A stretch of DNA of 64,000 bases, from the IMG/VR virus record IMGVR_UViG_2654587976_000001, positions 1-64,000 of that record; one strand, 5' to 3'. Positions 1-53,014 of this stretch are shown here, piece by piece. Below the pieces are notes generated by a model. The model did not search any database. It was not told the DNA's origin and saw only the letters and a list, made by a program, of their open reading frames with translations. Position numbers and translations under genes: made by a program. This DNA is from a virus. Taxonomy: Duplodnaviria; Caudoviricetes. The stretch's first letter is position 1. Each line of letters starts with the position of its first letter.

Positions 1-120
1 TTACGTTTCGGCTCTTTCAGCAACCTTGAACGTATCATTTTGTTGTTGGAGATAGGAAGCACCCAATGTTCCGGCAACGCCGAATAATAGAACTGCACAG
101 ATAAATAGTTTAGTTTTCAT
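1..120 (-). CDS. phr: Phr signalling-peptide precursor, 39 aa (MKTKLFICAVLLFGVAGTLGASYLQQQNDTFKVAERAET)
   Basis: Translated by hand (below ORF-track cutoff): ATG overlaps the rap stop (ATGA), signal-peptide-like N-terminus, C-terminal KVA-ERAET resembles Phr peptides with Arg at position 2. Confidence 0.9.
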   Translation of the reverse strand: MKTKLFICAVLLFGVAGTLGASYLQQQNDTFKVAERAET

Positions 121-1277
121 ATTGCTTCTCCCCTTTTGATTTGTCTTCTTGCTTCATTTGCCAAACGATAAAATTCAACTGCACCCCAAGCATCCTGTTT
201 TCCAGTGAGAAAATCTGCTACAGAGACACCATAACTTTCCATGTCAGGGTATATACCTCTTTCTTTGAAGAACTCGAATGTTTTCCTAACTAAGTCTAAA
301 TCATAGTCCAAGAAAAGTCCTTTAACCATTTTTAACTTTTCAAGTACCATTTCATTGTTATGCCGTTCAGCCAGCTGTTTGGCCTGTTCATAAAATTTTT
401 TTGCGTTTTCAACGTCATTTTGCCTTCCCTTTAAGAAGGAGATAACAAATAATGTTTTAGCAGCGTAATCATGATTTTCCGGCTCAATGATTTGAAGTGA
501 CTTATTAAAGTGAAAAAATGCTTTATCAAGTTCTTCCATTTGATTATAACACAATCCAATATTAAACAGTGCTGAACGCATCAAATGCCCACGATTCTTT
601 TCACTTTTGTTTAGCTCTACTGCCTCCTGATACGCTTTGTATGCTTGCTTTAAAGCTTCATCAAACTTCATACTGTCCAGCAAATTACCAAATATGACGA
701 ATTGACAGCGCACCTTTTGTACCCCGTATGTAGGGTTCCCGTCAATAGCAGGTTGTTTTTTAAATATATCGTAAGCCCTCATGGCATAATTCATTGAAAA
801 ATAAGTCTGTTTCATGTGGTAATACACTTCTGACAATTTAAAATAAAATTCAGCTTTTTCAACTTCAATATCTCCACTCTCGATTGAATCCAAATACCTC
901 TCAGCTTGTCTATAGTAATTAAGGGAGAATGTTAACTCTTTTTGTCTGAAATAGAACATGCCCATGAAAAAGTAATAGTAATATTCCAGCATTCCTGTTA
1001 AATTTCCATGACCTTCATATTCTTTTAGCTCGCCATAATTTTTCTCAATGTCTTTTATAGCGTTAGGATACATATATGCCAACATTAGCTTATGTCTAAA
1101 CTCAAGTAGGGAGAAGTATAGTAAAACATCTTGATTTTCTTCCATAACTTTTATTTCCTGCATAACTTCTTTACGCATTTCTTCTGCTCTACCGACCCAA
1201 TTCTTTTTAATAGCCACATACCAATGATTCATCTTTGTTGCTACTAAATCATAAGGAATGACTTTTTCACTCTTCAA
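117..1277 (-). CDS. rap: Rap-family response-regulator aspartate phosphatase (TPR), RapI-like
   Basis: N-terminus IPYDLVATKMNHWY...MEENQDVLLYFSLLEFRH, LEYYYYFFMGM and EKAEFYFKLSEVYYHMKQ are Rap motifs; directly followed by phr. Confidence 0.92.
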   Translation of the reverse strand: MKSEKVIPYDLVATKMNHWYVAIKKNWVGRAEEMRKEVMQEIKVMEENQDVLLYFSLLEFRHKLMLAYMYPNAIKDIEKNYGELKEYEGHGNLTGMLEYYYYFFMGMFYFRQKELTFSLNYYRQAERYLDSIESGDIEVEKAEFYFKLSEVYYHMKQTYFSMNYAMRAYDIFKKQPAIDGNPTYGVQKVRCQFVIFGNLLDSMKFDEALKQAYKAYQEAVELNKSEKNRGHLMRSALFNIGLCYNQMEELDKAFFHFNKSLQIIEPENHDYAAKTLFVISFLKGRQNDVENAKKFYEQAKQLAERHNNEMVLEKLKMVKGLFLDYDLDLVRKTFEFFKERGIYPDMESYGVSVADFLTGKQDAWGAVEFYRLANEARRQIKRGEAI

Positions 1278-44706: not shown

Positions 44707-45354
44707 TTACACCTTTTGATTTCTAAATCGGATGACTCGTTCCTTTGTTTTTTGTTTATTCCTCTTGACTGTACATTTCCCACAGAAAAGCTTCTTACTT
44801 GTTTTAGCCCTAAATAGCGTTTTACAATCACTACAAACTCTTAGTGTTTTCAGGTTGTGTGTTAGGTTGTTCAATATACAAGCACCGAAACATTCCCACA
44901 AAGTCGATTTGAATTTACTCTTCTTTTTATACAGATACTTAATCAGAACATCAGCAACATATTGCTCGTCTTCATGAATCTTCAGCAATCTGTCTTTAAT
45001 GACCTTATAAACATAAAGTTTTTGTCCAGGCTTAATGTCTTCATCATTCATGAGCCATTTCTTGTTTTGGTCTAATCGTTTGTACTCACTAATAATTGCC
45101 TCGTCCAACTTAATATCCTTGTTCTTGAGCAGGAAGCGATAATCGAACTTCCCTGCAACAGCTGCAAAATTAATTCGGTCTGAGGGGATAATGGAGTCTA
45201 ACTTATTTACTGTGCTTTCATTAATTAACTCAACGCTATGTTCTTCTTTATCCTTTGCATTGATGAAGAAGTGGGGTACTTTATTTTTTATGTAATCTTT
45301 GATTTTTTCATCGACATGATCAGGTCGGGTAGGCATGAATAAGGTTTTTGCGAA
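44707..45354 (-). CDS. yonO: yonO exon 2 (C-terminal 215 aa, with Zn-finger-like Cys motif)
   Basis: Begins TTC GCA AAA (FAK) after the intron's terminal G, in frame with the tracked ORF. Confidence 0.88.
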
Positions 45355-45685
45355 CTTTGATACCCTCGGTTTCCCGATATTTTATTAGGGAATAGACCAT
45401 ATCATCATCTGTGCTAGACAGATGGTCAGCGCTTCATAATAAGGAATTTCACCTTATTATTACTCCATAAAGGATGGTCGTTGCACCTTCATTTACAAGT
45501 GCTTCCCAGCATGATGTAAACGCTTGGCACAGGGTTATCGTATCGATAAGGACTTAGAATTCCCCTGTTAGCACACTCATTGACGATCATTTCCTATCGC
45601 TGCTTTTCGCTGAATGCACACCCTAGATTTCTAGGTTCACTGACTTTTCATCCGCATATCGCTATGCGACGCGACTAAAAATTTA
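45355..45685 (-). mobile_element. Group I self-splicing intron (331 nt, no homing endonuclease) in yonO
   Basis: Exon ends in U with P1 CGAU|UAA...UUAGUCG (U-G wobble at the splice site); P7 elements CAACGACCAT and GATATGGTC; ends in G; removal gives in-frame ENNFTID|FAKTLF. Confidence 0.92.
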
Positions 45686-47560
45686 ATCGATAGTAAAGTT
45701 ATTTTCCATACATAACCATTTGATCACGTCCATATTTATGTTGTCACTGTTCCATATCTTAGTGATGTTGTTGCTGTACTCCCCGATATTGATCCCATAA
45801 GCAAGAGTTAGTGCTTCATAGATGTTTTTGCTATTAATCTCTTGTTTCTGGGCTACAGACATTTCATAATACAACGGAACGATGTTTTCCATATTACGCT
45901 TGGCAATATTGACGATTAACTCATCAGGAATAATTAAGGCCTTATCCCCGTCATTGTCGAACTGCAGCAGTTTAGATATTGGATCATGAATGCTGGTGTA
46001 AACACCTGGGGTAATGAACCACTTTTCATATTCCTCATCTTTTTTGTTCCACCTAACACCATGCTCTCTGAATAGGTGAGGGGAGCGGAGGATATCAATA
46101 TACCCTTCATCATATAAAGAACAATGGACATCACTTCCTGAAAGCAGTCCTTTTGGATTCTGGATGTTCAGAAATAATTTTTCGCAGAAAGCATACAGGT
46201 CAGGGCATAAGTATGTATAACGAGCACCATCAACAAGCAATTTTCCTGATTTGGCATCTTTAATCATGCTTTTCTTTTTATTTTTAATAATTTCTTTCGT
46301 GTGATCATCGTTAAGAAGTTCTGGATATAGAAGCAAAGCGTTCTGAAGAGCTGTTCGATGTTTCTTTTTCTCCGTAGCTCCAAGAACTCTTAACATGGTT
46401 TCTTTGTCAGTTCCCAATGTGGTAATCTCTTTTACAGTCTTAGAGCTCATTTGAATTAATTCTTCATCGGAGATATCTGTAAGTGTCTGGAGCATTTGAT
46501 AAGTGAGTTTACCTTCAATAGAAGGGTCTTCTTCGTTGAGTTTTGCCCCTAAGCATCCATATTTTTTATAATTGCCTTGATATTCTTCCCACGATGAATA
46601 ATACTTCCACATTTTAAACTGGCTTTTAGTGAAGATAATTTGAACATCATCTTTCACTACGTCCCATTCCTTGCCGTATATATCAGTTACTTTAAAAGCT
46701 TTGTTTTCCTCAGCAAATTTACGAAAATCAAAAGGGACTAATAAACCCTTTACCCATGGGAGTCTTACCATGAAGCTTTTACGACTTAGAGTGGGGAGTA
46801 TCATTCCGCAGCCATCTGTATGTTCAATGGGAATGTTCATTGTTTTTCGTGTGATATCGTAGGTATCTCGATCAATGTAGTCAACGAGACTCGACACATC
46901 AGTTTCTAAGTCGTTGACAACAATGGCTTTATCAATATCAATCTCCCAAGGGCTACTGGCACTGTTAGAAAGGGCCATATAGCTATTCCATTTGTTAATG
47001 CTACTACCACCAAGGGAGTTGATCTTTTCAATACTTAAGCCGCATGTCAAAGCATCCTGATACTTATCGTAGGTGCTTTTTTTAATGAAACATGACTTCT
47101 TTGTACGAATTTGACCGGCGCTGCTCGTGAAATAAATGTATTTTTCATTGTTATGTAAAAATCCCTGATCAATAATGTCCTTCAATACTTCAAAATGGTA
47201 AGTCTGGACAACCATGATTTCCTCTGAAAGGGTGTTTTCTTTAATCCCTAATGTTCGGGTCAACACTGAATCAAATAAAGAAATCACTTTATTATCCCTT
47301 AAGCTGTCAGTTCGAAGTGTTCTTATGTTATTATGTTCTTCGAATGCGGAATAGAGGCATTCTTTAAGGTATGTAATTCTTTGTGATATGTATTTCTTAT
47401 GTTTATTATTTACATTGTCTAATGTCTTAAGATAATCTCTGTATCTATAAGACTTCAAAATCTTATTATGTAATGAATTTTCTTTGTCATTATAAAATGC
47501 TGATGTGTCCACGCTGTATATGTGAACTTGCTTAGACAATCCGTCTTTTTTTCTTTTCAA
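45686..47560 (-). CDS. yonO: yonO exon 1: single-subunit double-psi-barrel phage RNA polymerase (spliced product 840 aa)
   Basis: Catalytic QFDNDGD, LRSPHL and HTDGCG motifs; adjacent to yonN. Confidence 0.92.
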
Positions 47561-47576
47561 TCAATCCCCTCCATTT

Positions 47577-47877
47577 ATTTTATTTTTACTCTAAAAGTGC
47601 TTAATATTCGCTATTAAGATATTGATTTACTAAACTTCGATATGTAAAGCTTTGCTTATTAATCTTTCCGTACCATTTATAATCCTGATAAAGGTATTCT
47701 TCTTCGGGTGTTGCTGTCCCATCGACTACTTTTCCCTCAATAAATCCCATTAAATGACTAAATAAATACTGCTTTTTCATCTTACACCTCCATACTATTT
47801 TATTTTTACTCTTAAGTAATTAAAATAAAGACCACTTCATGTGGTTGTGTCTTTATTATATATTTTATTTTTACTCT
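47577..47877 (-). promoter_or_regulatory. Three exact copies of AGAGTAAAAATAAAAT (47577, 47797, 47862) upstream of yonO/yonP
   Basis: Exact 16-mer repeats; further copies at 50629 and 52999, variants at 52920, 56583 and 56672. Confidence 0.8.
47601..47780 (-). CDS. yonP: YonP-like small protein (59 aa, MKKQYLFSHLMGFIEGKVVDG...)
   Basis: Hand translation; GGAGGTG RBS; directly upstream of yonO. Confidence 0.7.
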   Translation of the reverse strand: MKKQYLFSHLMGFIEGKVVDGTATPEEEYLYQDYKWYGKINKQSFTYRSLVNQYLNSEY

Positions 47878-47898: not shown

Positions 47899-48135
47899 TT
47901 AATTGGATTTAATTTCGATTAATTCAAAAAGATCGTCAACTTTACAATTTAGAATATGTGCCATCAATAAAAGATTGTATGTACTAGGGAGGACGGTTGC
48001 AAATCCCTCGCTGTCATTTTTACACCATCTAGATATACTTGCTCTTTCAGCTTTTATTTGCTCTGCTAACCAGCCTTTTTCGATACCTTTGCTGCTTAGA
48101 AATGAATCCAACTTACTTTTAACCCTATATTCCAT
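47899..48135 (-). CDS. Xre/Cro-type HTH regulator
   Basis: WLAEQI.A.RASISRWC...LL.MAHIL.C.VDDLF; divergent from the tubulin operon. Confidence 0.85.
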   Translation of the reverse strand: MEYRVKSKLDSFLSSKGIEKGWLAEQIKAERASISRWCKNDSEGFATVLPSTYNLLLMAHILNCKVDDLFELIEIKSN

Positions 48136-48313
48136 TTAAATCATCCTTTTGCTGTTTGAATAAATTTTATAAAATGACTGGTTTACATACAAGCAGAGTG
48201 TAATTATTTGCATTAAGATACAAAAATATTTGCATTTAAATGCAAATAGACAATATAATAATCGTATATCAACCAAGATACTTCAAAATCATCAGATATT
48301 AAGGAGGGGTCAC

Positions 48314-48598
48314 ATGGATACTTATTTTGCTTCTGTCATTGACAACTTAACTCGAAATGATCTGTATATTCTAGGCTTATTGAGCGATGAAGGGGCTGAT
48401 TTAAAGTTTAAATCAATTAGGAAGAAAACCATTCAAGCTAAAACTCAGTTAACTGATGCTACCTTTAGAAAGAGTATCGATCGTCTGGAGGCCTTGCAAT
48501 TTATTAATATAGTGAAAAACAGTAAAGAGCATACAATTTTTATTACTCAATATGGTCAAGAAGCTTTGAGATATCAATTAGAAGGGGAGAGGGTTTAA
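48314..48598 (+). CDS. Winged-helix DNA-binding protein (TubR-like candidate), 94 aa
   Basis: AAGGAGG RBS; LTDATFRKSIDRLEALQFI...ITQYG wHTH pattern; TAATG coupling to the tubulin gene. Confidence 0.75.
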   Translation: MDTYFASVIDNLTRNDLYILGLLSDEGADLKFKSIRKKTIQAKTQLTDATFRKSIDRLEALQFINIVKNSKEHTIFITQYGQEALRYQLEGERV

Positions 48599-49710
48599 TG
48601 TTTGGTTTTATTGGAGTTGGTCAGGCCGGCGGAAGTGTAGCAGATGAAGCAATGAAGAGAGGATTTCATTCTGTCGCAATAAATTATTCACTTTCAGACC
48701 TTAATTCATTGGTCAATATTCAAGATAAGCTTCATCTGGTTGGGACAGAAGGAGTTGGCAAAGAAAGAAGTGTAGCAGCGAAACATATGAAAAACAACTG
48801 GGAATCTTCTATTGAGTTTATAAAGAACACAATGGAAAAGCCTTCAGTACAAGTCATTTTTGTTGTTTTCTCTGCAGCTGGTGGAACTGGTTCAGGGGTA
48901 GCTCCTATATTATTAGAATTGTTAAACGAATGTCTTACTCATAAAACAATAGTTGCTGTACCCATCCTTCCTGACAACAATGAAGTATTGGTCAATCAGA
49001 TGAATTCACTGGAGTTGCTTGATGACTTATCTATGCCAGAGACATGTGTTTTACCTTTGGATAATCAAATGGTTTTGAGCAAATATGAAGGGAAGATTTC
49101 TGAAAGCAGACTATACAAGGAGACAAACAAGATGTTCCTTGATTTAATCGAAGTCTTACTCAATTACACGGACAGAGGATCAAAGATCAGTACATTAGAC
49201 AGGAAGGATTTAAATCAGCTTTTTGACACATCAGGAATCATGACTATTGCTCAAACAGACCTCAATGAATTTACAAATGAGGGTAAGTATTTTGATAAGC
49301 TGCATGAAGATATACAAAAGTCGTGGAACAATTCGATTTTCACTCCTGTTGAGTTTACAAATGTGATGAGAGCTGGAGTTATTCTGGATGTTCATGAGTT
49401 CTTAACGGAACATATATCGTATAATGAGCTGTTTAATGTCTTTGATAACAAGATGCCCCTAGACTTATTTAAAGGGCATTATGATAAAGGTAATAGGGCG
49501 ATAACGATTCTTAGTGGATTAACCTGGATCAATGAGCGAATGAAGCAGTTAGATGATTTAATTGAAAATGGGAACACTGAAGTTAAAGAAACAACTGTTT
49601 ATAAAGCGAAGAATCGCCGTAGAGAGGATTTATTTAAACCGAAAAAACTGGAGAACAAGGAATCGAAAAAGACCTCTTATATGGAGGCACTGAAGAGACT
49701 AAAGCGCTAA
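48598..49710 (+). CDS. Tubulin/FtsZ-superfamily GTPase (TubZ/PhuZ-like)
   Basis: T1 GVGQAGG, EGVGK, T4 signature AAGGTGSG, LDN, T7-like TLDRKDL; basic C-terminal tail. Confidence 0.9.
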   Translation: MFGFIGVGQAGGSVADEAMKRGFHSVAINYSLSDLNSLVNIQDKLHLVGTEGVGKERSVAAKHMKNNWESSIEFIKNTMEKPSVQVIFVVFSAAGGTGSGVAPILLELLNECLTHKTIVAVPILPDNNEVLVNQMNSLELLDDLSMPETCVLPLDNQMVLSKYEGKISESRLYKETNKMFLDLIEVLLNYTDRGSKISTLDRKDLNQLFDTSGIMTIAQTDLNEFTNEGKYFDKLHEDIQKSWNNSIFTPVEFTNVMRAGVILDVHEFLTEHISYNELFNVFDNKMPLDLFKGHYDKGNRAITILSGLTWINERMKQLDDLIENGNTEVKETTVYKAKNRRREDLFKPKKLENKESKKTSYMEALKRLKR

Positions 49711-49720
49711 TTTTAAAGGG

Positions 49721-49746
49721 AAGCTGCCTATTTTGGTGGCTTTTTT
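49721..49746 (+). terminator. Terminator after the tubulin gene
   Basis: AAGCTGCC-TATTTT-GGTGGCTT followed by a T-run. Confidence 0.75.
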
Positions 49747-50698
49747 ATTTTGATTTTTTATGACCCCCCTTGGTGATCGTGAGCTAAAAAAGTGCTTATC
49801 GTCAATGAAGATCGGAAAGGGTTAATTAGTTGATATAGCAATGTTTTAGAGCTGTCAAAGGGGATAATAGGTGTTTTGTGATCGTAAAACGTAGACAGGA
49901 GAGAGGAAAAGTGGTTGTTTATTTAAAAATCCAATGAAAAAGGGGAGAATGAGGGGTAGAAAAACATTGATATTATAGGCTTTTACGATAGCGGTTACGA
50001 TGCGAAAATAGGCTGAAAAATGGGAAAGTGAAAAAATAAGTTGGGTGTGGAAATGGAAGTGCTAGGGGTACATTTGTTCTTGTTTTTTGGCCTTTAGATG
50101 TTAATATACCCCCTATATATTGGTAGTGAATTCCCTATATAAGATACGTTATGCAGGGTTTTTATGATTTAACTGATAAATTTGCACAACTAACACAATT
50201 TCAAATGAAAAACAATATTTATTTTTGAAAAAATAATTAAGCGGTCAACTTAAAAGTGAATACCCATTCATTAAAAAAAATCGTGTATATAACGAAAGGA
50301 AGCAAATCGAAGTCTTATTTTTTATCTATACAATTTACTTATCTAATCCATACACCTATTTTATATTCACCCTAATCGTGTTCCTTCTCATCTCATTACA
50401 TCCACCCATAACCTTACTTGTCCTCATCTCTATTCCGTTTCCTTCACCATACATTATATATCCATCCTATACACACTAACCACACATCATCAGAAGCATT
50501 CTAATACACCTAGAATCAATTTTAATTTAATCATAGTATCATTGGTATCCAATCCACATACATGCCTTATACAGCCTATAAACACCCATGAATAATAGTG
50601 CCAAAATAATTTAAAAAAATCCATTTTAAGAGTAAAAATAAAATGACTCGAAAGGGAAAATGTGCTATAATAGAGTTATAGGAAAGGAGGTGTACATA

Positions 50699-50878
50699 GT
50701 GCTTGAGAAAGTGGGTATAACAATTGCTTTCCTTATTCCTATCACGGTTTTAATCATCAACTGTTTAACAATAGCTGAGAAGATTCAAAACCTGATGAAG
50801 AATAAAGAAAGCAAAAAGAAAAAGCGTACACGCAAGCGCCTCCGTAGCAAGAGACAACGCAAACGTATACGCAGATAA
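50699..50878 (+). CDS. yonT: Type I toxin YonT (59 aa, GTG start)
   Basis: AAAGGAGG RBS; LEKVGI...TM helix plus very basic tail (KKKKRTRKRLRSKRQRKRIRR) like SPbeta YonT; TGCTATAAT extended -10 upstream. Confidence 0.88.
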   Translation: MLEKVGITIAFLIPITVLIINCLTIAEKIQNLMKNKESKKKKRTRKRLRSKRQRKRIRR

Positions 50879-50912
50879 CACGCTAAAGGGGAATTAATCC
50901 CCTTTAGTCACT
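50810..50912 (-). ncRNA. SR6-like antisense antitoxin RNA (ends approximate)
   Basis: Minus-strand TTTACA-N16-TATAAT promoter with TG extension at 50919-50946; hairpin 50883-50907; overlaps the yonT 3' end as known for SR6. Confidence 0.6.
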
Positions 50913-52919: not shown

Positions 52920-53014
52920 AGAATAAAAATAAAATAATTATTGAATATTTATAGTGATCATGTTAAAATTAAATCAAGTCAAAGGATTACATACATTTAG
53001 AGTAAAAATAAAAT
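52920..53014 (+). promoter_or_regulatory. Operator-flanked sigmaA promoter cassette, copy 1
   Basis: 16-mer - TTGAAT - TGTTAAAAT - TAAATCAAGT - CATACAT - 16-mer; homologous to 56583-56687. Confidence 0.75.

Follow-up and report, generated by a model that had tools for sequence, protein, structure and literature searches.

A TubR–TubZ-type gene pair beside a divergent Xre gene in an SPbeta-like Bacillus prophage, and its possible role in segregating phage DNA

Large Bacillus plasmids and one plasmid prophage are known to use tubulin-based partition. Here, a module of this kind is described in an integrating temperate phage, at positions 47899-49746 of a 64,000-nucleotide stretch (the window) that forms the first 64 kb of the 128,870-bp IMG/VR record IMGVR_UViG_2654587976_000001, a record classed as a provirus whose source phage is SPbeta-like and about 125 kb long. 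A list of open reading frames (ORFs) and a signal scan delimit, from left to right, a leftward Xre-type gene, a 178-bp spacer, tubR, an overlapping tubZ and a terminator (Table 1). The 94- and 370-residue products of the last two genes genuinely belong to the TubR and TubZ families, respectively. With moderate confidence, we lean towards a type III TubZRC-like segregation module that acts on the extrachromosomal phage genome and is gated by the Xre protein. Both protein families are known; what is new is the setting, an integrating SPbeta-like phage with a serine recombinase, together with a divergent, putatively gating Xre gene with palindromic units and the natural swapping of cassettes.

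The larger protein matches the Pfam Tubulin family (PF00091) with 71.8 bits against a cut-off of 33. An initial model-made reading of the letters alone (the sequence-only reading) had listed three motifs and a basic tail, all of which are present: GVGQAGG at residues 6-12, AAGGTGSG at 93-100, TLDRKDL at 198-204, and a final stretch of 37 residues with 15 K/R versus 5 D/E. Residues G95, G96, G98, G100, D201 and D204 are invariant across a 16-sequence alignment. In the AlphaFold2 (AF2) model, the stretch with the two aspartates (STLDRKDL) comes after a long helix (169-191), and by this position it can be provisionally assigned as the T7 loop; by analogy, D201 and D204 would complete the GTPase site of the neighbouring subunit, with GTP-dependent polymerisation as the expected outcome. 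The model has a predicted local distance difference test (pLDDT) score of 84.7, with residues 327-359 below 50 and hence predicted to be disordered, followed by a helix at 361-369. This predicted tail fits the flexible tail described for TubZ (PMC5322520), and it resembles the C-terminal end of the TubZ family, KK.S..DIL.KYK, which is conserved in the 16-sequence alignment.

Comparison with solved structures points to the same family. The top phmmer match in the PDB is the TubZ of the Clostridium botulinum prophage c-st (4xcq/3v3t, E 1e-14), above CetZ, FtsZ and gamma-tubulin, and the same two structures take Foldseek ranks 1-2 (target-normalised template modelling score, TMt, 0.82-0.84), with CetZ close behind at rank 3 and the TubZ structures of B. 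cereus and B. thuringiensis at ranks 5-10. Identity to the TubZ of the Priestia megaterium plasmid pBM400 is about 41%. Two other identities were considered and rejected. The FtsZ equivalog model TIGR00065 reaches 29.4 bits versus a cut-off of 295.2 and the FtsZ_C domain (PF12327) is not matched; because the equivalog model fails, the RefSeq name "cell division protein FtsZ" is wrong, and genome annotation thereby misnames a TubZ. As for PhuZ, the PHROG match to its family (phrog_4733, E 9.7e-10) is weaker than that to the unnamed phrog_17961 (3.7e-16), a TubR adaptor is present, and the phage is an SPbeta-like one of about 125 kb rather than a jumbo phage.

The smaller protein is equally well placed. 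It matches the TubR of pBM400 (PDB 4asn) by phmmer at E 3.2e-17 over residues 1-89; its AF2 model (pLDDT 93.3) has an N-terminal helix at residues 2-10, and its top Foldseek match is 4asn_A, at a TM score of 0.89, a root-mean-square deviation of 0.9 Å and 39% identity. An exhaustive search of 1.84 billion proteins returned 107 cluster representatives, mostly of 90-100 residues (about 94). The tubR ATG is preceded by a strong ribosome-binding site, AAGGAGGGG, and the TAA stop of tubR overlaps the ATG start of tubZ as TAATG, an arrangement that couples the two genes translationally. The sequence-only reading had proposed a TubR/TubZ-type pair in an SPbeta-like phage, which is now supported by sequence, fold, gene order and context; the layout it gave, with the TAATG junction, the operon's own terminator (a hairpin with a T run), the divergent Xre gene and a 22-bp palindrome, was recovered in full, the palindrome at exactly the coordinates in Table 1.

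A phylogeny had been suggested as a check on this pair. In a tree of 86 rows, which leaves out rows below 300 residues, the weak matches P0076-P0088, the TubZ of pBtoxis, RepX and PhuZ, the velezensis, licheniformis and pumilus types of SPbeta-like element share one TubZ clade (8 rows; Shimodaira–Hasegawa-like approximate likelihood ratio test, SH-aLRT, 100). This clade is nested in a Bacillaceae clade of 65 rows (SH-aLRT 99) that includes pBM400 TubZ, while c-st TubZ falls into a sister clade of 12 rows (SH-aLRT 95), together with the metagenomic locus L070, and true FtsZ rows form an outgroup outside the TubZ rows. The single SPbeta-type clade indicates long retention within the phage lineage.

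Relatives of TubZ are found well beyond this phage. A protein search gave 93 of them across Bacillaceae, on contigs ranging from plasmid size to several Mb, and plasmid records hold 34 matches. Of these, 18 are on pBM400-type plasmids of Priestia, with about 41% identity, and two are on Bacillus circles whose size and content are those of SPbeta (described below). In IMG/VR, there are 18 loci with 95-100% identical TubZ and 5 of the pumilus type; these 23 related records are classed as 20 proviruses and 3 linear sequences. When 67 IMG/VR loci were anchored on yonV, a gene to the right of the module, 15 had TubZ and TubR upstream; 9 of the 52 TubZ-less loci have less than 4 kb of upstream DNA, so absence is not established for those nine. 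One of the 15, the distant metagenomic relative L070 (yonV 42%), has a divergent TubZ gene at the corresponding position, together with two winged helix-turn-helix (wHTH) genes. A single-protein scan of species genomes returned one locus, on a 133-kb contig of a Streptomyces-labelled assembly, which is not informative. Among isolated phages, five records have TubZ relatives, only phage G (30% identity) and the c-st group (26%), and none of them is SPbeta-like. In phage G, a lytic jumbo phage (L107, 2189-3616), the 98-residue gp137 comes directly before the TubZ-like gp138, the same two-gene layout as in the window.

Both genes are under strong purifying selection. The full 370 codons of tubZ are present in 25 of 26 related loci, and the ratio of nonsynonymous to synonymous substitution rates (dN/dS) has a median of 0.059 over 150 pairs (pooled 0.072; 18 alleles from 20 sequences of the cassette types A and C defined below). 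For tubR, the median is 0.045 over 74 pairs (pooled 0.056; 13 alleles from 18 sequences). These estimates leave out the locus L024 and the pumilus-type loci for both genes, and type C loci for tubR. In four RNA libraries from two studies, contigs lie over tubR and tubZ, and a single contig spans the junction of the two genes. Runs X4, X17 and X18 have separate contigs over the two genes, with the Xre gene covered in X17 and not in X4; run X1 has a single contig across the whole stretch, which may be DNA. RNA libraries can hold DNA, and contig depth and gaps cannot be read as expression levels, so these contigs are a weak hint only.

The element also occurs in circular form. The circular B. velezensis element plaBV1 (122,487 bp) is SPbeta-like and carries a 99.7% identical tubZ, and a circular, likewise SPbeta-like B. 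pumilus replicon of 124,561 bp carries one of 52% identity. A large serine recombinase is encoded on both circular records and at the record end in 4 of the 23 related IMG/VR records. Purifying selection, together with these circular 122-125-kb copies deposited as plasmids, strengthens the case for segregation or positioning of the excised or replicating genome, and plasmid-like inheritance is favoured because the characterised systems closest to this one belong to plasmids or plasmid prophages. In plaBV1, the YonO-like gene is only 24.7% identical to that of the window, and neighbouring modules are mosaic.

The 78-residue product of the divergent gene matches the helix-turn-helix family HTH_26 (PF13443) with E 6e-06 and 26.8 bits against a cut-off of 22, and is likely a repressor of the tubRZ module. 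Its ORF is intact in all 18 type A loci (17 besides that of the window), with six protein variants. It was also considered as an orthologue of YonR, which was rejected at only 20% identity and E 0.059. In the spacer, a third half-site, TATTTGCAT at 48205-48213, lies 22 bp to the left of the palindrome, giving two tandem 22-bp units; put differently, the spacer has a direct repeat of 22 nt with a spacing of 22, and three ATTTGCAT half-sites make up both units. The two direct ATTTGCAT copies are kept in 18 of 18 type A loci. The octamer as such is not enriched in the 128,870-bp record (17 versus 14.0 +/- 4.1 in 50 simulations), and the 178-bp spacer is the only place in that record with three ATTTGCAT within 100 bp. 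The palindrome of unit 2 is perfect in 8 of the 18 loci; its right arm reads ATGCAAAT in nine and ATACAAAT in the other nine, the variants differing by G or A. By eye, a tubR promoter can be read as TTGCAT, 18 nt and TATAAT (48254-48259), with unit 2 overlapping the -35 region; the scan matched TTTAAA, 16 nt and AATAAT (48235-48262; 9/12 matches), with a number of sites no higher than in shuffles. The sequence CAATATAATAAT in the promoter region is kept in all 18 type A loci.

Repeated AGATA words had also been pointed out in the spacer. Three AGATAY words are indeed there (48216, 48276 and 48294), as in the spacers of all 18 type A loci, but the word is not enriched over the 4.1-kb locus (9 versus 6.6 expected; 42 of 200 shuffles reach 9). 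Read on the opposite strand, the words at 48276 and 48294 resemble the AGTATCT words repeated 5' of pBM400 tubR; by themselves they are not significant and give a weak lead only.

The spacer differs between related elements. Type A cassettes have TATTTGCAT half-sites. Type C (L016, L024 and L026) has a different yonP, Xre gene and TubR body; its palindrome is TTGTAATCATTAATGATTACAA, and of its additional ATGATTAC half-sites one lies at a distance of 22 bp. Type B, the pumilus type, has other proteins again, with GTTGTCTATATAGATAAC and further half-sites; the half-sites number five in type C and four in type B. TubZ, by comparison, is 95-97% identical between types A and C, as are the last 12 residues of TubR (YG.EALRYQLEGERV), which places a recombination joint near the end of tubR. 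Across the three swapped cassettes, the operator thus moves as one block with the DNA-binding proteins Xre and TubR. Since an exchange of the operator is in every case accompanied by an exchange of both proteins, this covariation does not assign the palindromes to either one. Loci without an Xre gene (pBM400, phage G and L070) show no clear common repeat pattern. On balance, the palindromes are best regarded as probable Xre operators, and their form fits an Xre dimer; that they are TubR sites is doubtful, and that they serve both proteins is unlikely.

The genomic setting is that of SPbeta. The module is flanked by the YonO RNA polymerase gene, yonP, a yonT-type toxin gene with its SR6 antitoxin RNA, and a yonV-like gene, and the element is a temperate, SPbeta-like phage that integrates into the chromosome of hosts in the Bacillus velezensis/amyloliquefaciens group. 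Its yonP belongs to an unnamed PHROG family of 64 residues (E 2e-28) and corresponds to the annotated yonP of SPbeta and phi3T. At the end of the record, a xanthine/uracil-permease ORF lacks profile positions 1-127, as expected of a prophage inserted in a gene. No serine recombinase was found in the 128,870-bp record; the near-identical plaBV1 has about 10.7 kb extra between the two record ends, including a 695-residue large serine recombinase, which suggests that the recombinase-bearing part was probably cut off at the provirus borders of the record.

In SPbeta, the gene order is yonP, about 950 bp of non-coding DNA, yonR, yonS and yonT. A 770-bp non-coding stretch to the right of tubZ (from 49880) has 71-84% identity in SPbeta, phi3T, SPR and Goe phages, and its SPbeta counterpart sits between yonP and yonR, the interval to which the genome-opening or packaging (pac) point of SPbeta has been mapped (10.1101/2021.11.22.469490). 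On this match, the slot that the module fills is a variable one, with yonP on one side and the pac region on the other. The sequence-only reading was correct in placing it between yonP and yonT, but not in equating the place with that of yonR/yonS, since it lies between yonP and the non-coding stretch. In phi3T and in a close relative (yonV 99%), the same slot holds small unrelated ORFs, and in SPbeta yonP is followed directly by the non-coding stretch, without a module. A tubC 3' of tubZ was considered in this region, where ATCGTAAA-type words occur at 49774-50000 (direct, then two inverted) and are conserved in the B. pumilus element. They were rejected as TubR sites because SPbeta and phi3T, neither of which has tubRZ, conserve them too, and within the window there is no enrichment of the octamer (4 versus 3.0 expected).

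Under the segregation model, TubR dimers would bind the spacer repeats (the 22-bp units at 48205-48248, the AGATAY words, or both) and form a centromere-like complex on the operon promoter. TubZ with GTP would assemble into filaments, D201/D204 of one subunit completing the GTPase site of the next, and the basic, flexible tail with its terminal helix (361-369) would grip the TubR–DNA complex, so that the DNA is moved by the filament. Timing of the operon would be set by the divergently encoded Xre protein through binding to the palindromic units, a layer not found in the plasmid systems. The cargo would be the phage genome as a free circle, either after excision or after infection and before integration, and daughter cells, perhaps forespores too, could then inherit this circle in the way of a low-copy plasmid. 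A precedent for a filament with an adaptor in an integrated prophage is AlpAC of CGP3 (PMC4446434).

Several observations weigh against such a role. The module is absent from SPbeta, phi3T and the other 20-odd isolated SPbeta-like phages, which makes it dispensable for the phage life cycle. A circular 118-kb SPbeta-like B. subtilis "plasmid" has YonO and no TubZ match, so circular records arise without TubZ, and the circular "plasmid" records may simply be excised phage DNA and not a stable episome. The window's element itself abuts a truncated host permease gene, rather than lying on a low-copy plasmid or plasmid prophage. In described systems, tubC consists of blocks of direct repeats (iterons) 5' of tubR that are bound by TubR and overlap the promoter (PMC6009700); no such iteron array was found at the spacer, whose sites are few and palindromic. 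A TubY-like gene is missing 3' of tubZ, where 49711-50659 has no plus-strand ORF of at least 40 residues, and tubZ is frameshifted in one of the 26 loci (L024).

Among other explanations, a role confined to the lytic cycle is possible, if rather unlikely: TubR and TubZ would act only after induction, placing or spreading the replicating DNA or the adjoining packaging site within the cell in the manner of PhuZ or AlpAC, and would not serve plasmid-like inheritance. Such a role would suit an element that is integrative and mostly found integrated, as a lysogen would have no need of partition, and an Xre gate would suit induction-dependent expression. The module also adjoins the non-coding stretch that matches the mapped pac point (10.1101/2021.11.22.469490), phage G offers a lytic example of a small gene followed by a TubZ-like gene, and AlpAC is a precedent here too (PMC4446434). 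However, the closest characterised relatives, pBM400 and c-st, are plasmid or plasmid-prophage systems, the PHROG match to PhuZ is the poorer of the two, and most SPbeta-like phages grow lytically without the module. It is quite unlikely that the module is a mere passenger, a plasmid-derived cassette in a variable cargo slot that brings the phage no benefit and is kept by recent transfer. Patchy presence among close relatives (15 of the 67 yonV-anchored loci), cassette swapping and the one frameshifted copy would all be explained in this way; against this stand a dN/dS of about 0.06 across 18 alleles and the single SPbeta-type TubZ clade, which spans velezensis, licheniformis and pumilus types at 52-66% identity.

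A function in replication, in which TubR and TubZ at or near an origin would aid initiation or copy control, is very unlikely. A replication role was first proposed for RepX/TubZ of large B. cereus-group plasmids, and it was on minimal replicons that the TubZ/TubR genes of pXO1 and pBtoxis were first identified. The conserved non-coding region next to the module also has repeated TATCGTAAA words (three direct, two inverted), but these repeats occur equally in SPbeta and phi3T, both without tubRZ, and so are not TubR-specific. In addition, the phage's own putative replication genes lie elsewhere (large ORFs at 86-100 kb), and later work regards TubZRC as a partition system (PMC6009700). Least probable of all is manipulation of the host, with TubZ interfering with host FtsZ, division or sporulation septation and the wHTH protein acting only as a regulator. 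TubZ does belong to the FtsZ superfamily, and phi3T, an SPbeta-like phage, is reported to alter host cell shape (PMC12361552); phi3T itself has no tubZ. The FtsZ equivalog score is far below its cut-off, with no FtsZ_C domain, the partner protein is a full-length structural match of a centromere-binding TubR, and the tail resembles the TubZ-family end, all of which argue against interference with division.

Comparison with characterised systems shows where the segregation module proposed here would differ from them. As in the window, pBM400 has a small wHTH gene directly before a TubZ gene of about 370 codons, in the same order. However, pBM400, a plasmid of 54 kb, lacks a divergent Xre gene (upstream, a 326-residue HTH protein is encoded in the same direction), and direct AGTATCT words take the place of the 22-bp palindromic units. 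The c-st plasmid prophage likewise carries TubR followed by TubZ on a phage, and provides the best solved sequence and fold match for the window's TubZ; c-st-type plasmids also have genes for HU and a YonO-like RNA polymerase near tubRZ, as SPbeta-like phages do. In contrast to the window's element, c-st lives as a plasmid (PMC8026635), its TubZ is only 26% identical and lies in the sister clade, a gene for the MerR-type TubY follows downstream (as in the plasmid p1BKT015925), and its tubC has more than 350 bp of iterons (PMC6009700). Its TubR is described as lacking the N-terminal helix (PMC6009700) that the window's TubR model has.

The TubZ/RepX proteins of pBtoxis, B. cereus and pXO1 share the fold (Foldseek 2xka, 4ei7 and 3m89, query-normalised TMq 0.70-0.75), and systems of the pBtoxis/pXO1 type also have a TubR adaptor and a centromere upstream of tubR (PMC6009700). 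Identity in the structural alignments is 16-19%, the chains are longer, and none of these proteins is among the best 60 of the 89 sequence matches. PhuZ and phiKZ TubZ of jumbo Pseudomonas phages are also phage-encoded tubulin-superfamily filaments that position phage DNA; unlike the window's protein, they are described as a separate subgroup and, in that account, without a TubR-type adaptor gene (PMC3678025). The window's protein also matches the PHROG PhuZ family less well than it does the TubZ structures. AlpA–AlpC of the Corynebacterium glutamicum prophage CGP3 combines a cytomotive filament with a DNA-binding adaptor in an integrated prophage and is reported to serve phage DNA after induction (PMC4446434, PMC5539076), but it belongs to the actin superfamily (ParMRC-like) and has no sequence relation to TubRZ.

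Further similarities with clostridial plasmids were seen in the gene content. YonO-like genes with about 50% identity to that of the window occur on three of the listed C. botulinum group III plasmids, and p1BKT015925 (L038, 183000-199000) has an HU gene and tubR-tubZ-tubY within about 10 kb. YonO homologues at about 44% identity are also present on around ten C. perfringens plasmids of 35-39 kb. The shared genes hint at kinship between SPbeta-like phages and c-st-type plasmid prophages.

A published description of the module was not found in titles and abstracts, and the main texts of preprints on SPbeta-like diversity make no mention of tubulin, FtsZ or TubZ; supplements were outside the scope of both searches. 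Strains with extrachromosomal phage DNA are listed in supplementary dataset 3 of 10.1101/2020.05.06.055103.

An integrated prophage should not need partition. A selected module in integrating prophages therefore points to an unrecognised free-circle stage, or to DNA positioning during lytic growth in a mid-sized phage. A more speculative prospect, which we regard as unlikely, is that this SPbeta-like lineage has two prophage states, one integrated by serine recombinase and the other a low-copy plasmid maintained through Xre-gated TubZRC. If true, partition would be switched on only in the free circle, for instance once the genome has been excised in stressed or sporulating cells, or where the host has no attachment site, and daughter cells and spores would thereby receive the phage. 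Related phages could then coexist, with the swapped Xre-operator-TubR cassettes as their incompatibility or immunity types, and the shared HU, YonO and TubRZ would link SPbeta-like phages to the plasmid prophages of C. botulinum group III. The hosts are non-pathogenic, genetically tractable Bacillus species, which makes the question directly testable, and the three natural cassettes provide ready-made specificity experiments in which the same TubZ meets another TubR, Xre and operator.

Table 1. Features of the module and its immediate left flank, in window coordinates
Feature	Position	Strand	Basis or remark
Terminator-like hairpin between yonP and the Xre gene end	47830..47846	both strands	signal scan (+ 47830-47846, - 47845-47831)
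Xre-type HTH gene, 78 aa	47899..48135	-	Pfam PF13443 HTH_26; reads away from tubR
Putative operator unit 1, imperfect 22-bp palindrome (TATTTGCAT ... ATACAAA)	48205..48226		contains first AGATAC word
Putative operator unit 2, perfect 22-bp palindrome TATTTGCATTTAAATGCAAATA	48227..48248		candidate Xre operator and/or tubC-like TubR site
Promoter-like region of tubR-tubZ (tentative)	48230..48262	+	by eye and scan
Two more AGATAY words	48276-48281, 48294-48299		just 5' of the tubR ribosome-binding site; weak candidate TubR sites
tubR, 94-aa winged-helix predicted centromere-binding adaptor	48314..48598	+	phmmer, AF2, Foldseek
tubZ, 370-aa tubulin/FtsZ-superfamily GTPase with disordered basic tail	48598..49710	+	Pfam, phmmer, Foldseek
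Intrinsic-terminator-like hairpin at the end of the tubRZ operon	49717..49746	+	12 pairs, then T run

Other features of the region were noted along the way. The non-coding stretch to the right of the module (49774-50650) is conserved in all SPbeta-like phages searched; it has an invariant GGGTGTGGAAATGGAAGTGCTA block as well as TATCGTAAA-type words, of which three are direct and two inverted. The phage records BUCT083 and BUCT082 begin inside it, and RNA-library contigs of two runs have an opposite-strand joint at 49961/50031. Next to it, a yonT-like small toxin ORF (50660-50878, +) overlaps the opposite-strand SR6 RNA (RF02892, 86.2 bits versus a gathering score of 55, 50813-50910). To the left of the module, an insert at 45373-45695 (-) splits the YonO gene into parts of 625 residues (45683-47560) and 209 residues (44707-45336); it matches an Rfam group I intron model over its full length, with a score of 38.3 bits that falls short of the gathering score of 50 and an E value of 3e-08 when 600 bases were searched. 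The same split is found in phi3T and L039, and L016 has a single ORF of 836 residues.

As regards defence, PADLOC returned nothing for TubZ and only weak generic wHTH/HTH matches for the other two proteins, and a defence system was rejected. A 16-mer, AGAGTAAAAATAAAAT, has 10 copies at up to two mismatches versus 0.5 expected. Copies lie on the minus strand to the left of the module (47577-47592, 47797-47812 and 47862-47877) and on the plus strand to its right (50629-50644, 52999-53014 and others), those at yonO, yonP and yonT being just 5' of the gene start; the arrangement suggests an element specific to the phage, a promoter or leader, that diverges from the locus. At the left end of the record, a 386-residue Rap-type protein with tetratricopeptide repeats (RapH_N, 80.9 bits) is encoded at 117-1277 (-) of the window, and may be a Rap phosphatase or an arbitrium-type receptor.

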